In this document: positions 2,637 to 22,344 of the stretch, one piece after another
Layout: each line of letters opens with the position of its first letter
Position numbering within the stretch: position 1 is the first letter of the stretch
Source: a virus
Lineage: Duplodnaviria > Caudoviricetes
Length of the DNA stretch: 64,000 nucleotides
Reading direction: 5' to 3' (one strand)
IMG/VR virus record: IMGVR_UViG_3300021431_004524
Location: 64,001-128,000 of that record
The notes under the pieces: model-generated
Databases searched by the model: none
Told to the model about the DNA's origin: nothing
Seen by the model: the letters and a program-made list of their open reading frames with translations, nothing else
Made by a program: the position numbers and the translations under genes

Positions 2637-5600
2637 ATGGCAAACAGTGAAAAAAACATCGTACATCAGAAAGATAGAATTTTCTATGTAGAACCAAATG
2701 ACATATATGGTAGTGTAGACGGTGTACCTTTAACACCTGATTATTCTGATTATTGTATTTCGGTCAATTTGATTGCCGAAATTGTTACACGCTACAGACA
2801 GAGTGGCGAAGATAAAACAATGGCACTTACAGTATCTTACTCTGGTGCTCCTGGTGAAGAATCATCAAATAAGTGGGTTTCATTTCTTAAAGGCGAAGAT
2901 GCTAAGATATTTGGTGGAGAAGGTAATTTTCTTACAACTTATTATACTGATATAGACTATGATGACATTGTTAAGAAGAACATTGTCGAAGGCCTTGGTA
3001 TTGAGAGTATACAGATTTCATTTGAAAGTTACTATACACCTACCGTTGTAATAAAATTTATTGATGTGAGGGGTTCATCACTTTTCGGACGTGAGGAAGC
3101 GGTTCATGAAAGTGGTGAGGAATTATCATCGTCAAGTGTATTCGGTGCTTTTTTCACTATTCCTTATCCTAAGTTCAAATTACAGGTTAAAGGTTTTTAT
3201 GGGCATGGTGTTACCTATCAATTGACATGCTCAAATTTCAAGGCTTCGTTTAATTCTCAGACTGGTAATTTTGAAGCAGTTGCTACGTTTATTGGTTATT
3301 CATATTCTCTTTTGACGGATATCCCATTGAGATACCTGGTAGCAGCACCTTATTGTAAGTATGTCGGTGAGAAATATTGGGAAGAACATTTGAATACACC
3401 TGCATGGGCATTAAGTGGCGGTGAGAGACCAATGAAACTTTTTAAATTGATTGATAAAATAAAATCGTTCCTTGATGACAATAAAATCAATGAAAAACTC
3501 ATGACAGATGAACAAACTGAAATAAAAAATAATATTTCGAATGAAAAAGCACAACTTACGACATTAGCCACGACATATAAAGAATACGTAGAGGCATTAA
3601 AGGGCTTAAATAAGACAAGTAGTTCTCTGCGTATTATAAGAGGTGAAGGAGAAAATGATGAACAATTATTAATATTCTCCCCTTCACAAGAAAATGAAGT
3701 AACAGATAAATTGATACTTGCAAGTCAGGCGTTTATTAATGCTTTTGATACATATAATTCATCTAATAATGGTAAAGCCTTTAGTAATTCATTGTTGCCT
3801 AATTCGAAACATGATATATTTGAAGCCAACAGAAGAATTATTTTTGGAAAACTATGCAAGGTAACAAGAACGGATAACAAAATAACAGGCGTTACATTTA
3901 ATTGCACAGAACAGAGTTCTGAGGGTATTAAGACAATAGAACTTAACAATAATAATAAACCGAGCGATGAAGTGGCACGATGTCTATTCGAAGATTCTCA
4001 TCCTGAAGACGGTGATATTAAAAGTTATTTTTCTGATTATTGTTATCTTGTTAATCTTAATAAATTTCTTGATAAAATAAATGAAAGAATTGAAAATCTT
4101 AATAAAGAAGACAAGGAAATAAATAAACAAATTGCTGAAAATGTACAGACAAAGGCCGCTTATAAATTAGGATTTACCCCGTATATCGGCGACATTTTCA
4201 AAATAATAATGTGTCACCTTGAAACATTTATAAAAATAATGTGGGAATGTTATAATAACATTACCAAATCAGACCGTTCGCCCGGTTATCTTAATGTTCC
4301 ATTGGAAAGTACTGATTTTGTCAATCTTGATAAAAACAAGGGGCAGATTGGTGCATGGCCCGGTCTTTTTAACAATGGTAAGAAAACAGACCAAGGTGGC
4401 GATGAAGACAAATCAATAGAATATTTGGCATGGGTTGGTGATTTCAGTCATAATTTCGAGGAAGAAAAGGTAATTATTGAGTTGTATAAGGCCGTAAAGA
4501 AGATAGCACCGGGAGAACCTTTAGAGCCAAAACCGGTTACTATGGTTGCCGGATTACCTGTTATGCCAAATGATGTGAATAATATAGATACTGTTTTCGG
4601 TGAGTCAATTGAAAATAACATATCATCATTAGCCGGATATCTTTCTTTCAGAGCGGCGCAGATTTTCGGAATATTGTTAAAGGAAAAGGCTTCTACTGAA
4701 TTAGCAAGTTCATTAGGTAAGATGGACGCATATAATTTCTTTACATGCTTACAATCAAGAAGTGAATTAAAGAACACTTACATTAATGCTGAATCCGGTA
4801 ATTCGTTGGAAAATATACTTAATGGTGTGTCGAAGTGTTCTAATGACTTTGATTCGTTTTGTAATAAAACATATCAGGAAACTGATAAAACAAGACATTC
4901 GTTTGAAACTGTTTACAAAATTGCTCAAAACTATAATAATAGGGATAGACATCCTTTATTTAAAGATGAAGGCTCAAATTTGAAATATGTTCATTATTAT
5001 ACACTTAATAATGTTGGGCTTGTGCCTGATAAATTGACATCTTATAAAGAGTATCGTAATATATTTGAATATAAGTATGATAAAGAAAAACCGTATTTTT
5101 TATTCAATCGTAAAACAGATACATCTTCAACCAGTGAATTCTTGCACAAGTCAAGTTGTAAGGCTTTATTTACCAATATTGGTAAAGTAGATGAAGATAA
5201 AGAGGATTTGTATAAAGTCGAAAAATATATCAATGATGATATGTTTAATGTCATTGTGAATCCGGAAATTTCAAATTCTATTAAGAAAAAATATGATGAG
5301 ATAAAAAGTGGTACGTTTACTATATATGGTGACGAATTTACTGATGATTTTTCTAATGTTCTTGAAAAATTATGGCATGTTGAGGATTCTGATTATGGCG
5401 TATTCTTTAACGGAAATACTAGTATGTTATCAAAACCGTTCGCTGATTTTGATATAAAAGAAGAAGAATTGTATCCTCTTATGAAGGATAAAATAAATGA
5501 TGACAAAGCACCATCATCCGTAGATAATGAAAAATTATTTAATATTGACGGTAAGACAATAACATATTCTGTAAATGACGGAAACGGAAGATGGGTTGAT

Positions 5601-16636: not shown

Positions 16637-19174
16637 ATGAGTTCTAATCGTAATGATAGAAGTACATTAGGATATCTTGGTGCTGATTTCCAGTTAAAAC
16701 TTGTAAAATGTTTTTTTGAAGACCAAAAGTATTTTGCAAATATACAGGAAATCGTAGACCAAAATATGTTTAGCAATGAACATCTTAGAAGAATTGTAGG
16801 TTTCATGAAAGACCGTTATAACTTTAATGAGACCGTTACAACTTATTTTGAGATGGAAACTATAATCAGAAGTAAAGTTTCGGACGCAATTTCAGTTGAG
16901 CAACTTCTTGCCCATCTTGAGAAAATCAAGGAGATGGACTTAACCGGTATGGATTTGGTCGAGGAAGAATCGGAAAATTTCTTCAAGCAACAGAATCTTA
17001 CCAAGGCAATAAACAAGGCACAGGATATTATTAAGAAAGGTGAATTTGACAATTATTATGTAATTGAAGATGTAATAAAAAAAGCCCTTGAAACAAACAC
17101 CAAAGAAGAAGGCGGAAAAAGGTTGTTCGAAAATATTGATAAAACGCTTTCTGAGGATGCCAAGATAAGAATACCTACGGGAGCAGATAAACTTGATGCG
17201 ACACTGCATGGTGGTCTTGCAAAAGGCGAATTGGGGGTAATAATCGCACCAAGCGGTATCGGAAAAGCTCAACCACTTACTTCAAAGGTGCTTACACCAA
17301 CTGGTTTCAAGACTATGGGTGAAATGAAAGTCGGTGAAATGGTGATTGGCGGTGACGGTAAGCCGCATCAGGTGATTGGCGTATTCCCACAAGGAAAAAG
17401 ACCTGTATATAAGGTTAGTTTTAGCAATGGTACAAGCTGTGAGTGTGATATTGACCATTTGTGGAATGTAAATACTTATTATCAGAGAACTCGTAAAACA
17501 TATGTTAAAGGGAGTGGTGTGAAAAACATGAAACGGGAATATAATAGTGATAAAACGTTTAAAACGTGGAGTCTTAGAGAAATTATAGACCGTGGAATAA
17601 TTAAGTATTTTCCAAATTCCGGAAGGAAAACTTATGTTTTTAAAGTGCCTGTTGTAAAACCGATTGAATTTGATAAACAAGAAGTTCCTATTAATCCGTA
17701 TTTAGCAGGTTATTATATTGGTGATGGATGTTTCCAAAAACAGAATATTAGTGTTGGTATACAAGATAAAGAGTCTGCATTTAATGAACTGAGTGTTATA
17801 TTAAAAGATGAACTACATCCATTTTTTAATGAGAAACGAAATATATGGTCTTTTAACTTAACAGGAAGTATTAGAAAAAAATGTATTGATACATTTGGTG
17901 TTTGTAACAGTAAAGATAAAGAGATACCTGAATGTTATTTGTTGAATACAAAAGAAGTAAGAATTAGTATACTTCAAGGTTTAATGGATTCAGACGGTAC
18001 AGTATACAAAAACGGTCATTCTGAATTTAACACCAAAAGTAAAAAACTTGCAGAACAGGTAACTTTTTTGGTTAAATCTCTTGGGGGTTATGTTAGTGTA
18101 AAAGAAAAAAAGAGTAGTTATTTTAATAAAAAATATAATAAACGTATTGATTGTGGTATTAGTTATCGTGTAAGCATTATGCTAAATGATGAAAATATAT
18201 CTTTATATCGTTTTAAAAGAAAACAAGACAGAGTTAAATATCGCACTAAGTATAAAGAAAGTATTTACATTACCGATGTTGAATATTTGAGGGAAGATGA
18301 AACTCAATGTATATTGGTTGATTCTGACGAGCATCTTTATGTGACCGATGACTTCATTGTGACACATAATACCTCTGCTACAACCGGTTTTGCTGCCAAT
18401 GCTGCAATAACCAAATGTAAGAGTAATAATGATAAAGGTTTCAAAGTACTGCATTATTTCTTTGAGGATGAGGAAAACGATATAGAAAGAAAATATTATG
18501 GTTTTTTAACAGGCTACGATGCCGGTGATTTGCATTTGCCTCATATTAGACCGTATGTAATAGAAATATTAAATGAGAATGCTGAAACAAAACGCATGCT
18601 TCGTGAGAATATTAAATTTGAACGGTTAATAAGTGGCGAGGTAACGGCTTCACAGATTAAAAACAAAATAAGACATGAAATTGCACTCGGTTTTAAACCT
18701 GATTTAGTTATTATTGACTATTTTGAATGCTTGAAGGCTGAAAAGGGTGACAAAAGTGATAGTGAATGGACAAAAGAGGCTATTACAATGAGAAAGTTGG
18801 AAGCCATTGCACATGAATTCGATATTGCTATATGGGTTCCGATACAAGGCACAAAAGATTCACTAGGACAGGAACTTGTCGGTCTTATGCATGCAGGCGG
18901 TTCAGTAAAGAAAATACAGATTGCTCATGTCATTATCACTTTTGCGGCCAGTGATGCCATGAAGTTGGATGGTAAACTTAACATTGCCATTGGTAAGTTC
19001 AGAGGTGGAAAACTTGATAGGAATAAATTCATGAATGTCTATTTTAACAACGGAACTTGTAGGTTTGACATGAGTGAAGTCGATGAAAATAACGATGATA
19101 TGTCTTTTGACGAAAAGCAATCAAGTAGATTGAATGAAATTGCAAGGCAAACCAAACAAACTTATCAAAAATAA
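16637..19174 (+). CDS. replicative DnaB/gp41-like helicase, intein-containing
   Basis: IPTG...LDATLHGGLAKGELGVIIAPSGIGK|T Walker A split by the intein; IIDYFE Walker B; GKFRGG. Confidence 0.9.
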   Translation: MSSNRNDRSTLGYLGADFQLKLVKCFFEDQKYFANIQEIVDQNMFSNEHLRRIVGFMKDRYNFNETVTTYFEMETIIRSKVSDAISVEQLLAHLEKIKEMDLTGMDLVEEESENFFKQQNLTKAINKAQDIIKKGEFDNYYVIEDVIKKALETNTKEEGGKRLFENIDKTLSEDAKIRIPTGADKLDATLHGGLAKGELGVIIAPSGIGKAQPLTSKVLTPTGFKTMGEMKVGEMVIGGDGKPHQVIGVFPQGKRPVYKVSFSNGTSCECDIDHLWNVNTYYQRTRKTYVKGSGVKNMKREYNSDKTFKTWSLREIIDRGIIKYFPNSGRKTYVFKVPVVKPIEFDKQEVPINPYLAGYYIGDGCFQKQNISVGIQDKESAFNELSVILKDELHPFFNEKRNIWSFNLTGSIRKKCIDTFGVCNSKDKEIPECYLLNTKEVRISILQGLMDSDGTVYKNGHSEFNTKSKKLAEQVTFLVKSLGGYVSVKEKKSSYFNKKYNKRIDCGISYRVSIMLNDENISLYRFKRKQDRVKYRTKYKESIYITDVEYLREDETQCILVDSDEHLYVTDDFIVTHNTSATTGFAANAAITKCKSNNDKGFKVLHYFFEDEENDIERKYYGFLTGYDAGDLHLPHIRPYVIEILNENAETKRMLRENIKFERLISGEVTASQIKNKIRHEIALGFKPDLVIIDYFECLKAEKGDKSDSEWTKEAITMRKLEAIAHEFDIAIWVPIQGTKDSLGQELVGLMHAGGSVKKIQIAHVIITFAASDAMKLDGKLNIAIGKFRGGKLDRNKFMNVYFNNGTCRFDMSEVDENNDDMSFDEKQSSRLNEIARQTKQTYQK
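17267..18370 (+). mobile_element. class 3 intein with LAGLIDADG homing endonuclease (368 aa)
   Basis: Starts AQPL, ends VTHN before Thr+1. WCT signature: DHLW (block B), TQCILV (block F), VTHN (block G). LAGLIDADG blocks YLAGYYIGDG and ILQGLMDSDG. Confidence 0.9.
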
Positions 19175-19362
19175 ATGTGATTAAATAGACAGAAATTAAT
19201 ATTTTTAATAAAATTTTTTTATATTTTTTTATTCTGTGTATATCAGACAGTTAAGTGAGTTGCCTATATTTTTTAACAAAAATCGGTGACTTTTTTGAAA
19301 GACGATATGATATATATTATATACCAAAGTTACAGAATAAAGATTAAAAAATAATATAAATT

Positions 19363-21558
19363 ATGCGTGTAAGAAAAAGTGATGGCTCTTTTGAAGAGTA
19401 TAATTCAAACAAGGTTAAACGCGGTATCTGTGAGGCGTATACCGCAGTTAATGAGACATGCCCAGATGGGTTAATTGATTCGTTGGCAAATAACCTTTTT
19501 ATTTACGACAATATTTCTTCTAGTGAAATAAGAAGACAAGTTGAAGAGGCGTTAATGTCAGTGAACAAGAAAGTGGCTAGGGAGTATATTAAGAAATATG
19601 AAGAAAAACAAGATAAGGATAAAACTCTTAAAAAAGATAGTGATTTTATAAGAGACTATATCAGTGCATCAAATGCTTCATCCGGTTCAAAATATGATTC
19701 TAATGCTAATGTTGAAAATAAAAATATTGTAACACTTGGACAAGAACTTCATAAAGGCAAGAATATTCAGCAAAATAGGTATATAATGCATAATAAGATA
19801 AAGGCGTTATATTCTAAAAAACTCGCTGACCAATATATAAAGGATATTGAAACACATGTATTATATAAACATGATGAAAGTGGTACACCCGGTTATCCTT
19901 ATTGCGTGGCAATCACAATGTATCCATTCCTTATTGATGGTTTAAGAAATATTGGCGGTCAATCAAAAGCACCAACAGACCTTAAATCATACTGCGGAGA
20001 GTTTATAAATTTGGTTTATTCAGTATCATCACAATTTATGGGGGCTGTTGCAACACCAGAATTCCTTATGTATATGGACTATTTCATTAGAAAGGATTAT
20101 GGTGACGATTATCTTGATATACTTGATAAACAAGTTGAACTTAACAGGAAGGGTAGAACCCTTGAACAAGTTATTGAGAATTGCTTTCAACAGGTTGTTC
20201 ATTCTATGAATATGCCGGCGGGTAATCGTGGCTATCAAACGGTTTTTTGGAATGTAGGTTATTTTGATAAAAATTATTTTGATGGCGTATTCGGAGAATT
20301 TAGATTTCCTGATGGAACTGCGCCAAAATGGGAAACATTATCTTGGTTGCAGAAGAAATTCATGAAATGGTTCAATGAGGAAAGAACAAAGTATATATTG
20401 ACTTTCCCAGTCGAGACAATGGCGATGCTTACCGATGGTCATGATATAATAGACAAGGAATATGCCGATTTTACAGCTGAAATGTGGGCTGAAGGACACT
20501 CGTTCTTCTGTTATTTGAGTGATTCACCAGACTCTTTGAGTTCTTGTTGCAGACTTAGAAACTCATTGAAAGATGGAGAGGAAGATGACGAACATAACCA
20601 CACGACACACCAATTCTCTATGGGTACTGCATCAGTAGCGACAGGTTCAAAGTCTGTAATGACCATTAACCTTAATCGCGTTATTCAGAATGCCACAAGA
20701 GAGTATTTTGAGAAAGTTGAAGGTAAAAAGTTGGAGAATGGTGTACAAGTAGATATTCATAAGGTAAAGGATAAGAAAGCACTTTATGAATATATTGCTA
20801 ATGGCGTTACTGAAATGACTGAGAGAGTACACAAGTACCAAAGAGCATTTAATGAGATTATTAAGGATTTCCTTAACGCAAATATGCTTGACATATATAG
20901 AGCCGGATTCATTAACATGAAGAAACAGTATCTTACCATTGGTGTGAATGGCCTTACAGATGCAGCTGAGTTCTTATCAATTAATGCAAACCTTAATGAT
21001 GACTACGAGGAATTTGTAAATATGATTCTTGAAACTATCAATATCTCTAATAAGAAAGATAGAACAAGAGATTGTATGTATAACACAGAGTTTGTTCCAG
21101 GTGAAAACCTTTCTAATAAAAACTATAATTGGGATAAGAAAGATGGTTACTATGTATCGCCAAAGCATATAATGTATAGTAGTTATTTTTTCAATCCTGA
21201 AGATACTGAATTATCAATCCTTGATAAGATGAAATTACATGGCAAGAATTATGTAAAGTATCTTGACGGCGGACAGGCGGCACATTTGAATATTAATGAA
21301 CATCTTTCATTTGAACAATATAGGCATTTATTGAAAGTCGCATCTGAATATGGCTGTAGTTATTTCACCTATAATTGTAAGAATTCAGTTTGCAACGATT
21401 GTGGGTATATAAGCAAAGACACATTAGATGTTTGTCCTAAGTGTGGAAGCCACAATATAGATTATCTTACAAGAATAATCGGTTATCTTAAACGTGTTAG
21501 TTCTTTCAACGAAGCAAGACAAATAGAAGAACATATGAGAAATTATAATAAAGAATAA
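19363..21558 (+). CDS. nrdD: anaerobic (class III) ribonucleoside-triphosphate reductase
   Basis: N-terminal ATP cone, YCV, SSCCRL active-site loop, CNDC/CPKC Zn ribbon, RIIGYL glycyl-radical motif. Confidence 0.95.
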   Translation: MRVRKSDGSFEEYNSNKVKRGICEAYTAVNETCPDGLIDSLANNLFIYDNISSSEIRRQVEEALMSVNKKVAREYIKKYEEKQDKDKTLKKDSDFIRDYISASNASSGSKYDSNANVENKNIVTLGQELHKGKNIQQNRYIMHNKIKALYSKKLADQYIKDIETHVLYKHDESGTPGYPYCVAITMYPFLIDGLRNIGGQSKAPTDLKSYCGEFINLVYSVSSQFMGAVATPEFLMYMDYFIRKDYGDDYLDILDKQVELNRKGRTLEQVIENCFQQVVHSMNMPAGNRGYQTVFWNVGYFDKNYFDGVFGEFRFPDGTAPKWETLSWLQKKFMKWFNEERTKYILTFPVETMAMLTDGHDIIDKEYADFTAEMWAEGHSFFCYLSDSPDSLSSCCRLRNSLKDGEEDDEHNHTTHQFSMGTASVATGSKSVMTINLNRVIQNATREYFEKVEGKKLENGVQVDIHKVKDKKALYEYIANGVTEMTERVHKYQRAFNEIIKDFLNANMLDIYRAGFINMKKQYLTIGVNGLTDAAEFLSINANLNDDYEEFVNMILETINISNKKDRTRDCMYNTEFVPGENLSNKNYNWDKKDGYYVSPKHIMYSSYFFNPEDTELSILDKMKLHGKNYVKYLDGGQAAHLNINEHLSFEQYRHLLKVASEYGCSYFTYNCKNSVCNDCGYISKDTLDVCPKCGSHNIDYLTRIIGYLKRVSSFNEARQIEEHMRNYNKE

Positions 21559-21570
21559 TTTTATTTTAAA

Positions 21571-21804
21571 ATGATACAAATATTACGTAAAGACGGATGG
21601 AAACTAAATCCAAATGATAAAATCGTTAATGCCATATTAAAAAGATGTGAAAAGTGTGATGGATTATGCCCTTGTACACACGATTCTGAGGATTATGAAG
21701 GTAAGGATTTACATTGTCCATGTACTGATTACAAAATAAAAGATGTATGCGAATGTGGATTATATGTAAAAGATTCAAATTGGGATTACATAACAAAAAG
21801 GTAA
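21571..21804 (+). CDS. ferredoxin:thioredoxin reductase catalytic-subunit-like [4Fe-4S] protein
   Basis: GWKLNPN...CPC-x13-CPC-x8-CEC-GLYV matches the FTR-c CPC/CPC/CHC pattern. Confidence 0.8.
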   Translation: MIQILRKDGWKLNPNDKIVNAILKRCEKCDGLCPCTHDSEDYEGKDLHCPCTDYKIKDVCECGLYVKDSNWDYITKR

Positions 21805-21808
21805 ATTT

Positions 21809-22288
21809 ATGATAAAATATTATAATGCGATGGTAGTATTTGAAGAAATTCCGGATGAAGTGACACTAGCAATTAATATAACAAATTGTCCGTGTCATTG
21901 TCCGGGTTGCCATTCAAAGTTTTTGTGGGATAATGTTGGTACTGAACTAACAGAAGAAGAGTTACACAAGTTAATTTTAAAAAATGATGGAATAACATGT
22001 GTTTGTTTTATGGGCGGAGATTCAGACCCAGAAGATGTTGTTAGATTATCTGAATATGTAAATTGTATAGAACATTTAAACGTTGGATGGTACAGTGGTA
22101 GGGATGAATTTGTGAACAGTCTCAACTACGATTTTTTTGAATATGTCAAAATTGGCCATTATGATATGAATTTAGGTGGTTTGGATAGTAAAACAACTAA
22201 TCAACGCTTATACAAGAAAAAAATAAGCACATCCAATGGCTTGAATTTACCTACATGGCATGATATAACAAATAAGTTTTGGAAATAA
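21809..22288 (+). CDS. nrdG: anaerobic RNR activating enzyme (radical SAM)
   Basis: NCPCHCPGCHS (CxxxCxxC), FMGG, TTNQRLY; downstream of nrdD. Confidence 0.92.
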   Translation: MIKYYNAMVVFEEIPDEVTLAINITNCPCHCPGCHSKFLWDNVGTELTEEELHKLILKNDGITCVCFMGGDSDPEDVVRLSEYVNCIEHLNVGWYSGRDEFVNSLNYDFFEYVKIGHYDMNLGGLDSKTTNQRLYKKKISTSNGLNLPTWHDITNKFWK

Positions 22289-22308
22289 TAATTTATAAAT
22301 AATCTCAG

Positions 22309-22344
22309 AACACCTATATTTAATATTATAGGTGTTTTATTTTA
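22309..22344 (+). terminator. hairpin / probable terminator after the nrd operon
   Basis: AACACCTATA / TATAGGTGTT stem with T-rich tail. Confidence 0.6.

Follow-up and report, generated by a model that had tools for sequence, protein, structure and literature searches.

Introduction

To our knowledge, only two routes have been documented for the re-reduction of redoxin-type class III ribonucleotide reductases (RNRs): NADPH/TrxR/thioredoxin (Trx) for NrdD2 enzymes, and ferredoxin/FDR/NrdH for the NrdD3 enzyme of Methanosarcina. Canonical ferredoxin:thioredoxin reductase (FTR) acts on Trx and requires a variable subunit; FDR depends on its rubredoxin domain. FDR reportedly acts on NrdH in the NrdD3 system of Methanosarcina (Wei et al. 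2015, Biochemistry 54:7019), and an NrdD2 class III RNR reportedly runs on Trx, TrxR, and NADPH (Wei et al. 2014). NrdD2 enzymes are defined by a third Cys beside the thiyl-radical Cys, an active-site Glu, and a conserved bottom Cys, and mutation of C329/C330 inactivates the NrdD of Thermotoga maritima (PMC4493059). The NrdD of Prevotella copri has been found by experiment to be formate-dependent (PMC11226230). Among phages, a mini-FTR is already known from crAss001, where gp5 is annotated as a 'putative ferredoxin-thioredoxin reductase' and counted among auxiliary metabolic genes (PMC6235969). We found no report in the open-access literature of a phage FTR-like gene linked to NrdD. What is new here is the comparative linkage of such a gene, called FTRm below, to NrdD2-type nrdD/nrdG and to Trx.

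The window analyzed is a stretch of 64,000 nucleotides (positions 64,001 to 128,000 of IMG/VR record IMGVR_UViG_3300021431_004524) from a giant, gut-type phage. It belongs to a record of 235,653 bp that is only ~60% complete. The inferred host order is Bacteroidales, of which P. copri is a member.

Genes of the nrdD-FTRm-nrdG locus

Three genes follow one another closely on the plus strand: nrdD (19363-21558, an ORF of 731 aa), the FTRm gene (21571-21804, an ORF of 77 aa), and nrdG (21809-22288, an ORF of 159 aa), with intergenic gaps of 12 bp between nrdD and FTRm and 4 bp between FTRm and nrdG. The ORF coordinates agree with the original prediction, which had placed a 77-aa gene tightly between nrdD and nrdG. 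A terminator-like hairpin (22307-22338, plus strand), with a stem of 12 pairs and then a T-rich tail, begins 19 bp past the nrdG stop codon. Upstream of nrdD there is a weak promoter-like site (19186-19214, plus strand; TAGACA-17-TAAAAT) with 10 of 12 consensus matches, and such matches are common in the AT-rich DNA here (30 observed vs 19 expected). The 12- and 4-bp gaps, together with the hairpin after nrdG, suggest that nrdD, FTRm, and nrdG probably form a single operon, one that serves anaerobic dNTP synthesis and brings along some of its own electron supply.

In profile searches, the nrdD product scores 759 bits against TIGR02827 (cut-off 568) and matches PF13597 with E 4.5e-89. It has an N-terminal ATP-cone at residues 1-77, and among solved structures T. 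maritima NrdD (4COI/4U3E, E 4e-66) comes closest to it. The finger loop reads SLSSCCRLRN (C395-C396), not MGCR. C395 and C396, the thiyl-radical Cys and the adjacent 'third' Cys in SSCCRL (codons at 20545-20550, plus strand), align with T. maritima C329/C330; E576, the NrdD2-defining Glu in NTEFVP (21088-21090, plus strand), aligns with E495 in NIEQVP; G707, the glycyl-radical site in RIIGYL (21481-21483, plus strand), aligns with the RIVGYL motif; and C181, the bottom Cys, aligns with C125. The C-terminal Zn ribbon comprises C677/C680/C691/C694. All of these residues, as well as R397, are invariant across nine aligned NrdDs that are 38-51% identical to the window NrdD, eight of the nine adjoining an FTRm gene, and the neighboring NrdDs scanned at L019, L088, L089, L095, and L105, plus L077, all carry the Cys-Cys pair. 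With every signature residue present, the phage NrdD is assigned to NrdD2, the Cys-Cys/Glu, redoxin-dependent type; the earlier view of it as a Cys-Cys redoxin enzyme and not an MGCR formate enzyme is borne out by both the T. maritima alignment and the nine-sequence alignment. Since the NrdD of P. copri, a member of the inferred host order, is formate-dependent, a redoxin-type phage enzyme plausibly needs a reductant chain of its own.

NrdG, the putative activase, has the radical-SAM motif C27-x3-C31-x2-C34 and scores 146.4 bits against TIGR02826 (nrdG3), slightly below the cut-off of 151.7. It also matches PF13353 (E 9.7e-5) and phrog_626, and nrdG accompanies nrdD in every relative.

FTRm is related to the FTR catalytic subunit

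The Cys pattern of FTRm is C33-P-C35, 13 residues, C49-P-C51, 8 residues, and C60-E-C62, followed by G-L-Y, and there is an extra C26-E-K-C29 upstream; the original prediction had read both correctly. Searched alone, the window protein gave no Pfam match at E<=1 and nothing meaningful in NCBIfam or PHROGs, and a match to XisF (E 0.025) was rejected as Cys-rich noise. A single-sequence phmmer search of the PDB reached the FTR catalytic chains 2PVG/1DJ7 (E 0.006) with the three Cys pairs aligned. The family profile matched 4TPU (FDR) over the full length with E 1.8e-6, including an N-terminal G(W/Y)xLNP motif held in common with FDR, and matched 2PVG (FTRc) with E 1.3e-5 and 7PWE with E 2.9e-4. 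PF02943, the FeThRed_B family to which the original prediction had pointed, was matched individually by 30 of 37 FTRm homologs (best 3.1e-9), so that this expectation held for the family and failed for the window protein alone. FTRm is thus in the FeThRed_B superfamily at the level of profiles, not of the single sequence against Pfam, and its closest solved relative, judged by profile score, is the FTR-like domain of Methanosarcina FDR.

There are 71 FTRm homologs at E<=1e-14 in a 90% cluster database, and homologs amount to 143 confirmed viral loci and 842 clusters at 50% identity. The six Cys are invariant in a 37-sequence alignment. The second spacer has 8 residues in 250 of 252 family members, and the first, with 13 residues in the window FTRm, ranges from 8 to 13 across the family. 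The many homologs, the invariant Cys, and the constant second spacer speak for a genuine gene and not a frame open by chance. By alignment, C33, C49, C51, and C60 are the predicted ligands of a [4Fe-4S] cluster, and C35/C62 a predicted redox-active disulfide. Longer homologs include fusions with HNH/NUMOD endonucleases, dUTPase, and PF01996, some of which may be gene-call read-throughs, and none with Trx, glutaredoxin, NrdG, or NrdD.

An AF2 model of FTRm has a pLDDT of 79. With Foldseek, its top matches in the PDB are FTRc chains, at a non-significant level (E about 1, TM 0.47). In an exhaustive VIA-align comparison with 48,161 chains, no more than three had Z>=2. All three belong to the FTR family, with low Z scores: 1DJ7_A at 4.5 (rmsd 3.0 Å over 63 residues), 4TPU at 3.5, and 7PWE at 3.4. 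The profile searches, and less strongly the fold comparison, support the proposal that the small protein is a relative of the FTR catalytic subunit.

Two finer points of the original prediction gained no support from the comparison. The extra CxxC, C26-E-K-C29 (21646-21657, plus strand), had been suggested as a built-in dithiol shuttle, but only 19 of 252 family members carry both Cys, and position 29 is Asn in 182 of the 252. The Glu that stands between the last two Cys of the window FTRm, where His was expected, had been pointed out. It is no special feature: the position is hypervariable (His in 95 of the 252 members, Cys in 76, Glu in 42, Val in 12, and others), and FDR (4TPU) carries Tyr where canonical FTR has the His of CHC. 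From these residues, the CHC His is a trait of canonical FTR and not of the wider superfamily.

FTRm and Trx recur beside nrdD and nrdG

A synteny survey found the FTR-like gene recurrently linked to Cys-Cys-type nrdD/nrdG in several phage lineages, an association on which the original prediction depended. At least eight gene orders place FTRm beside NrdD2-type nrdD/nrdG. With D for nrdD, F for FTRm, G for nrdG, and T for trx, the arrangements are D-F-G (27 loci of the window clade and L095), D-G-F (L045/L049/L077), F-D..G (L088), D..G-F (L089), G-F (L093), D-T-x-x-G-F (L120), D-x-G-F-x-T (L125/126), D-F-T-G with overlapping genes (L128), D-F-x-G (L127), and D-T-F-G (L007/8/28/29). Despite these rearrangements, 33 of 37 RNR-linked FTRm sequences fall into one clade (support 89/90). 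Within the group with NrdD identity >=77%, the slot between nrdD and nrdG holds FTRm at 12 loci, Trx at 10, both at 2, and nothing at 2; many NrdD2-bearing phages have neither FTRm nor Trx nearby. The alternation of FTRm and Trx in one slot suggests a portable, probably ferredoxin-driven electron supply for dNTPs.

A proposed route of electrons to NrdD

We consider it probable that the three-gene operon works in a chain that leads from host ferredoxin through FTRm and thioredoxin to NrdD. NrdG would put the glycyl radical on G707, and each turnover of NrdD would leave an active-site disulfide, which we infer to involve C181 and C395. FTRm, with one putative [4Fe-4S] cluster on C33/C49/C51/C60 next to the redox-active disulfide C35-C62, would take two single electrons from a low-potential carrier of the host (ferredoxin, possibly flavodoxin) and pass them to thioredoxin, which would be the phage WCGPC Trx in complete relatives and otherwise the host Trx. 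Reduced thioredoxin would in turn re-reduce NrdD. The putative elements of this scheme are Fe-S binding, the ferredoxin donor, the Trx acceptor, and the direction of electron flow. Several observations count against it: the window FTRm lies below Pfam thresholds and matches the FTR fold weakly (Z 4.5, Foldseek with E about 1); FTRm is found without NrdD in crAss001 as well as in roughly half of the near-complete ~100-kb records; chromosomal FTRm is away from nrdD, and many NrdD2 phages lack FTRm/Trx nearby; no Trx is present in the window's own record, itself just about 60% complete; a variable subunit and a rubredoxin domain are both missing, and ferredoxin docking on a 77-aa protein is only presumed; and the catalytically helpful CHC His is replaced by Glu.

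FTRm also occurs outside phage RNR loci. The gp5 gene of crAss001 (MH675552.1 2271-2468), whose product is 63% identical to FTRm over residues 1-67, lies in a tRNA array next to a gene for a Dps-like protein, an arrangement of crAss001-like phages that goes with a lack of NrdD, and the crAss001 genome has no NrdD and no Trx. NrdD is absent from about half of the near-complete ~100-kb FTRm-bearing (crAss-like) records, and the NrdD-bearing GenBank crAss-like phages cr85_1, cr111_1, cr116_1, and IAS virus are not among the FTRm-positive records. Chromosomal copies in Bacteroidales (Prevotellaceae, Paludibacteraceae) stand alone, not adjoining nrdD, and in L117-119 FTRm lies between the halves of a split dnaE. 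An obligate co-occurrence of FTRm with phage NrdD was rejected on the evidence of crAss001 and the ~100-kb records. Because FTRm is found in phages without NrdD and in chromosomes away from nrdD, its role is not restricted to RNR. These occurrences, and the description of gp5 as an auxiliary metabolic gene (PMC6235969), would fit a general redox auxiliary that connects the thioredoxin pool with that of host ferredoxin, for instance in thiol homeostasis or oxidative-stress tolerance of the anaerobe under infection, with RNR one of many beneficiaries and the placement beside nrdDG reflecting co-expression with early or nucleotide-metabolism genes. We regard this as unlikely, because the tight, often overlapping linkage with nrdD/nrdG/trx persists through at least eight orders and down to ~40% NrdD identity, the FTRm sequences linked to RNR group together in a coherent clade, and the alternation of FTRm and Trx in the same slot would be left unexplained.

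No thioredoxin or glutaredoxin match was found with Pfam in the window or in the whole 235,653-bp record (~60% complete). The original prediction had also noted that the window has no Trx, which stands, and had proposed a route through host Trx or directly to NrdD, a proposal that the relatives modify. In three complete ~410-kb relatives whose slot contains FTRm, a 100-102-aa Trx is encoded elsewhere in each genome, with a WCGPC active site read in two of the three, and the linked redoxins are PF00085 thioredoxins by Pfam, with active sites WCGPC, WCAPC, or WCNPC. Since Trx stands in the operon of close relatives and elsewhere in the complete ~410-kb relatives, the likely intermediate is a phage-encoded Trx. 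If FTRm instead acted as a ferredoxin:NrdD reductase, reducing the NrdD disulfide without thioredoxin, this would explain why the window operon has FTRm and no Trx, why the 235-kb record has no Trx, and why a complete 168-kb genome (G005) has FTRm adjoining nrdG and no Trx; the frequent use of FTRm or Trx as alternatives in the slot (12 vs 10 loci) could then mean functional equivalence. Such direct reduction is nonetheless quite unlikely, given that Trx is kept elsewhere in each of the three complete 410-kb genomes that have FTRm in the slot and that both genes share one operon in many lineages. Known FTR and FDR enzymes act on redoxins, and the ~60% completeness of the record means that a Trx may lie outside it. 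For the chain through Trx, the electron donor must come from the host, since the window's record has no ferredoxin motif and neither it nor four relatives, which include three complete genomes of 410 kb, have flavodoxin, rubredoxin (PF00301), or the FTR variable subunit (PF02941). A phage-encoded donor was rejected on these empty scans.

FTRm most often adjoins or overlaps nrdG, and no phage flavodoxin was found for NrdG. FTRm, with or without Trx, could therefore serve activation, either by keeping the Cys of the Zn ribbon or NrdG reduced or by feeding the radical-SAM cluster of NrdG to allow glycyl-radical formation; activation of the E. coli class III RNR reportedly needs the thioredoxin system to reduce C-terminal cysteines (Padovani et al. 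2001). This role is very unlikely, in that FTRm adjoins nrdD and not nrdG in L088, L128, and L127, and all the linked NrdDs in the sample (nine by alignment and six by scan) have the redoxin-type Cys-Cys/Glu, as would suit a function in turnover. Moreover, FTR-type clusters are not ordinary one-electron carriers. Finally, although the Pfam failure of the single sequence, the low fold Z-score, and the absent catalytic His would suit a small structural or regulatory protein that binds zinc through its six Cys and merely resembles FTR, this is highly improbable in view of the full-length profile matches that include the N-terminal G(W/Y)xLNP motif of FDR, the CPC/CPC/CxC register and 8-residue spacer of FTR, the structural matches exclusively to FTR-family chains, and His as the commonest middle residue in the family (95/252).

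Discussion

The locus, together with its relatives, points to a third combination, of ferredoxin, a minimal FTR, Trx, and NrdD2, carried as a compact operon by large gut or rumen-type phages. We propose, tentatively, that FTRm, with 62-77 aa and one [4Fe-4S]/disulfide module but neither a variable subunit nor a rubredoxin or flavin domain, may be a self-sufficient thioredoxin reductase, the smallest known, and that with phage Trx it may form a mobile two-gene cassette that couples NrdD2 to the host ferredoxin pool. If this is true, phages of formate-type (Bacteroidales) hosts could make dNTPs without formate or NADPH. Confirmation would provide a minimal FTR scaffold for enzymology and engineering, explain what a gene family does whose crAss001 annotation says only 'auxiliary', and show how phages that infect anaerobes obtain the reductant for making DNA. 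The variation in the slot (FTRm, Trx, both, or neither) offers ready-made genetic controls.

The FDR (4TPU)/NrdH/NrdD3 system of Methanosarcina likewise shows a genetic link of an FTR-type [4Fe-4S]/disulfide module to a class III RNR and a small redoxin, and FDR, like FTRm, has no His in the CxC motif (Tyr in FDR). However, FDR has 173 aa and a C-terminal rubredoxin domain, whereas FTRm has 62-77 aa, lacks this domain, and ends ~15 residues past the CxC. The partner redoxin is NrdH in Methanosarcina and a classical WCGPC-type thioredoxin in the phages, and the reductase is NrdD3 (third Cys, no Glu) in the one and NrdD2, with E576 present and invariant, in the other. The Methanosarcina system is archaeal, whereas the FTRm system is phage-encoded and bacterial. 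The Desulfotalea psychrophila glutaredoxin/FDR fusion (7PWE) also joins an FTR-like module to a redoxin partner, but as a fusion with glutaredoxin, whereas FTRm is a separate protein.

Plant and cyanobacterial FTR (1DJ7, 2PVG; PF02943) has the same CPC...CPC...CxC arrangement and 8-residue second spacer and is the best structural match, and thioredoxin is the presumed acceptor of FTRm as it is the acceptor of FTR. In contrast, FTRm has no variable subunit (PF02941), is ~40 residues shorter, has a first spacer of 13 residues in the window protein instead of 16, and carries Glu in place of the CHC His; its would-be role is in dNTP supply, whereas plant FTR serves light regulation. The gp5 protein of crAss001 belongs to the same phage-encoded mini-FTR family, but its gene lies in a tRNA array without NrdD/Trx, and no link to ribonucleotide reduction has been proposed for it. 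Finally, the NrdD2 enzymes of Neisseria bacilliformis and T. maritima share the bottom Cys, the Cys-Cys pair, and the Glu with the phage NrdD (PMC4493059). In those bacteria electrons come from NADPH through the flavoenzyme TrxR, whereas the phage operon encodes a putative Fe-S disulfide reductase, which would imply a donor at the level of ferredoxin.

The nrdD-nrdG locus and its record

In the window, a gene for a 77-amino-acid protein resembling ferredoxin:thioredoxin reductase (FTR), here called FTRm (21571-21804, + strand), lies between nrdD (19363-21558, +; 731 amino acids) and nrdG (21809-22288, +; 159 amino acids). The three co-directional ORFs are separated by gaps of 12 bp (nrdD/FTRm) and 4 bp (FTRm/nrdG), and just 3′ of nrdG is a terminator-like hairpin (22307-22338, +) whose stem is 12 pairs long. 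Phage-like genes flank the locus. Two of them encode baseplate proteins, a gp25-like wedge protein and a J protein, and a third (16637-19174, +) encodes a DnaB-like replicative helicase (AAA_25/DnaB C-terminal region) that is split by an intein carrying LAGLIDADG homing-endonuclease and Hint domains. The window spans bases 64001-128000 of its record (G000), a 235,653 bp IMG/VR virus entry, labeled 'provirus', with an estimated completeness of ~60%. Its nearest complete relatives are phage genomes of ~410 kb, one of which has inverted terminal repeats, and G000 is therefore probably a jumbo-phage fragment rather than a prophage.

FTRm as a minimal FTR-like protein

The original prediction described the cysteine framework of an FTR catalytic subunit in the 77-amino-acid ORF, and the sequence is exactly as described: C33-P-C35, 13 residues, C49-P-C51, 8 residues, C60-E-C62, and then G-L-Y, with C26-E-K-C29 upstream. 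FTRm alone has no match in Pfam, NCBIfam, or PHROG family scans. A single-sequence search of PDB sequences matched FTR catalytic chains (E = 0.006) and aligned each of the three Cys pairs with its counterpart, and many of the 71 close homologues of FTRm have a precomputed match to PF02943 (FeThRed_B). In an alignment of 37 family members the six cysteines are invariant, and 30 of the 37 match PF02943 individually. The best match of the family profile is the Methanosarcina acetivorans ferredoxin:disulfide reductase (FDR; 4TPU), in a full-length match that includes an N-terminal G-W/Y-x-L-N-P motif (E = 1.8e-6), followed by FTR catalytic chains (E = 1.3e-5) and a Desulfotalea Grx/FDR fusion (7PWE; E = 2.9e-4). 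With an AF2 model of FTRm (pLDDT 79), FTR catalytic chains rank at the top of a Foldseek search without significance, and when the model was compared exhaustively with 48,161 chains, only three reached Z ≥ 2, all of them FTR-family chains with low Z (4.5, 3.5, and 3.4). These matches bear out the proposed kinship with FTR and, on sequence and model, place FTRm in the FTR-catalytic/FDR superfamily as a minimal member. C33, C49, C51, and C60 are the predicted ligands of a [4Fe-4S] cluster, with C35 and C62 the predicted redox-active disulfide. Neither an FTR variable subunit nor a rubredoxin is encoded in the window phage or its complete relatives.

The family comprises 842 clusters at 50% identity (E ≤ 1e-3), mostly of 60-130 amino acids. 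Longer homologues are fused to dUTPase, NUMOD/HNH homing endonucleases, or a PF01996 domain (P0078, 269 amino acids; P0074 and P0077, about 227; P0086, 397), and some of these fusions may reflect gene-call read-through in recoded phages.

Two features singled out in the original prediction are not family traits among the 252 members that fit the six-Cys pattern. The glutamate that replaces the usual histidine of the last Cys pair is one state of a hypervariable position, as the middle residue is His in 95 members, Cys in 76, Glu in 42, Val in 12, and other residues in the remainder; in FDR the middle residue of this CxC is Tyr. The extra CxxC, suggested to be a built-in dithiol shuttle, is complete in just 19 of the 252, with Asn at position 29 in 182, and a conserved shuttle of this kind is unsupported.

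The window NrdD as a redoxin-type class III enzyme

The window NrdD scores 759 bits against TIGR02827 (cut-off 568), has an ATP-cone in a family-model scan, and has Thermotoga maritima NrdD (Tm) as its best solved relative (E = 4e-66). Its match to the formate-dependent NrdD of Prevotella copri is weak and confined to the C terminus. In a residue-by-residue alignment, the Tm counterparts of C181, C395-C396, and E576 (NTEFVP) are C125, C329-C330, and E495 (NIEQVP), respectively. Because these residues pair with their Tm counterparts, the window NrdD is, by sequence, an NrdD2, the redoxin-type class III ribonucleotide reductase (RNR) defined by Cys-Cys and Glu (PMC4493059). The radical Gly707 lies in RIIGYL and the Zn ribbon is intact. 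The signature residues are invariant in nine NrdDs with 38-51% identity to the window protein, eight of which adjoin an FTRm gene, and Cys-Cys is present in all neighboring NrdDs scanned for the motif (loci L019, L088, L089, L095, L105, and L077, the last read with TGA as Trp). The radical-SAM CxxxCxxC motif is present in the window NrdG, whose TIGR02826 score of 146.4 bits is slightly below the 151.7 cut-off.

In L077 (positions 3397-5540; IMGVR_UViG_3300021255_000060, 168 kb with direct terminal repeats), from a phage that also has nrdG-FTRm, five TGA codons interrupt the nrdD frame, each where the alignment has a conserved Trp. Code 4 leaves the frame open, and this phage therefore appears to read TGA as Trp. 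Inteins interrupt nrdD in several relatives, giving ORFs of ~1087-1092 amino acids in L123/L124 and L128.

Linkage of FTRm, NrdD2, and thioredoxin

Surveyed from FTRm, the predicted association with CC-type nrdD and nrdG recurs in several gene orders. With D, F, G, and T denoting nrdD, FTRm, nrdG, and trx, the order D-F-G occurs in 27 of 80 viral loci, which belong to the window's clade, and in L095, where NrdD is only 42% identical. Other orders are D-G-F (L045, L049, and L077, in 166-168-kb phages), F-D..G (L088), D..G-F (L089), G-F (L093), D-F-x-G (L127), D-T-x-x-G-F (L120), D-x-G-F-dUTPase ... T (L121), D-x-G-F-x-T (L125 and L126), D-F-T-G (L128, with overlapping genes, and L022), and D-T-F-G (L007, L008, L028, and L029, relatives in the window clade). 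In an FTRm tree, 33 of 37 RNR-linked rows fall in one clade (support 89/90), at a resolution limited by the short alignment. Some window-clade loci have extra genes at the nrdD/FTRm junction, among them homing endonucleases and a methyltransferase. This junction is an insertion hot spot in relatives L005, L010, L012, L015, L019, L020, L021, and L027, where the inserts are HNH or GIY-YIG-like endonucleases, a DNA methyltransferase, a 234-amino-acid ORF of unknown function, or thioredoxin.

Surveyed from NrdD, among loci sharing 77% or more NrdD identity with the window, 12 have only FTRm in the nrdD-nrdG slot, 10 have only thioredoxin, two have both, and two have an empty slot. The slot is mostly empty at 70-74% identity, and at 47-54% neither gene is nearby. 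Pfam matches confirm the thioredoxin genes. In each of the three complete ~410-kb genomes that have FTRm in the slot, a thioredoxin of 100-102 amino acids is encoded ~158 kb away (WCGPC read in two of the three), in a region without a counterpart in the window's incomplete record. Because this spacing would put thioredoxin just outside the record, the window phage probably encodes it as well. Five complete relatives of 317-401 kb have thioredoxin and no FTRm, and one near-complete relative has neither. Four complete phages of 185-190 kb (G069-G072, with loci L187, L191, L197, and L200) encode an NrdD2 of 51-53% identity; their FTR-like match is no more than distant and partial (about 29 bits), at a site far from nrdD, and thioredoxin was not found in them.

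FTRm genes away from NrdD

Phage crAss001 gp5, 63% identical to FTRm, sits in a tRNA array in a genome lacking both NrdD and thioredoxin; it already carried the annotation "putative ferredoxin-thioredoxin reductase" and had been called an auxiliary metabolic gene (PMC6235969). Another 43 viral records with FTRm, most of them ~100 kb, include 22 with NrdD; of the 24 records with a completeness of 90% or more, 11 have it. In no ~100-kb record is NrdD within 6 kb of FTRm. GenBank crAss-like phages with NrdD of the window's type are absent from the FTRm-positive records. In L117-L119 (3289-8714; 20-36-kb contigs), the DNA polymerase III alpha gene is split into a PHP/N-terminal and a polymerase/C-terminal half, with FTRm between the two and a Pif1-like helicase alongside.

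Stand-alone FTRm copies of 62-72 amino acids adjoin housekeeping genes in Prevotellaceae and Paludibacteraceae MAG chromosomes, and the family is therefore also bacterial. Such apparently chromosomal copies, in L083, L094, L097, L098, L100, and L104 (Prevotellaceae, Paludibacteraceae, and Bacteroidales MAG contigs), neighbor mutS, ftsA/ftsZ, rpsF-rpsR-rplI, aspS, and xylose genes, and the phage copies may derive from bacterial genes of this kind. One FTRm-bearing bacterial genome has an NrdD2-NrdG pair without FTRm between; three others match the NrdD2 family model only weakly and only at the C terminus, through ORFs equal in length to the formate-type P. copri enzyme. Thioredoxin is directly upstream of a more distant FTR-like gene in two Paceibacterota genomes (L107:5462-6207 and L108:5235-5985, CPR MAGs; a WCPPC thioredoxin immediately 5′ of an 89-92-amino-acid gene), an arrangement that independently fits a thioredoxin-directed role of the wider family.

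A proposed route of electrons to NrdD2

The most economical reading, which we consider reasonably likely, is that electrons would flow from host ferredoxin (or flavodoxin) to FTRm, then to thioredoxin and NrdD2. Thioredoxin would be the core partner, with FTRm an add-on coupling it to the low-potential pool. No flavodoxin or rubredoxin was found in the phage genomes examined and no ferredoxin motif in the window's record, and therefore any electron donor would have to be a host protein. P. copri, whose NrdD is formate-dependent by experiment (PMC11226230), belongs to Bacteroidales, the inferred host order, and the formate route of such a host would not serve a redoxin-type phage NrdD.

It is unlikely that FTRm is a general redox auxiliary with RNR as only one client, a role consistent with crAss001 gp5 and the chromosomal copies, set against the clustering of most RNR-linked sequences in one clade. 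Direct reduction of NrdD by FTRm appears quite unlikely; slots holding FTRm alone would suit it, and the distant thioredoxin of the ~410-kb genomes speaks for an intermediary. We give little credence to a role in NrdD/NrdG activation rather than turnover: FTRm adjoins nrdG in many loci, and also follows nrdD or precedes it. That FTRm is a Zn protein merely resembling FTR, for which the lack of a family match by the lone window protein might be cited, is highly improbable beside its relatives' matches to PF02943. The chain through FTRm and thioredoxin to NrdD2 has good support from comparative genomics and can be tested directly; its components are individually known, and its biochemical role is predicted.

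Comparison with known systems

Searches of open-access literature found no paper that ties a phage FTR-like gene to ribonucleotide reduction, the sole mention found being the crAss001 annotation. Compared with canonical FTR, FTRm has no variable subunit, and the window protein also lacks the CHC histidine. Of the systems described so far, the Methanosarcina FDR-NrdH-NrdD3 chain comes closest. In contrast to that chain, the phage FTRm has no rubredoxin domain, the phage systems would use classical thioredoxin instead of NrdH, and the system in the window would serve NrdD2 rather than NrdD3 and is phage-borne.
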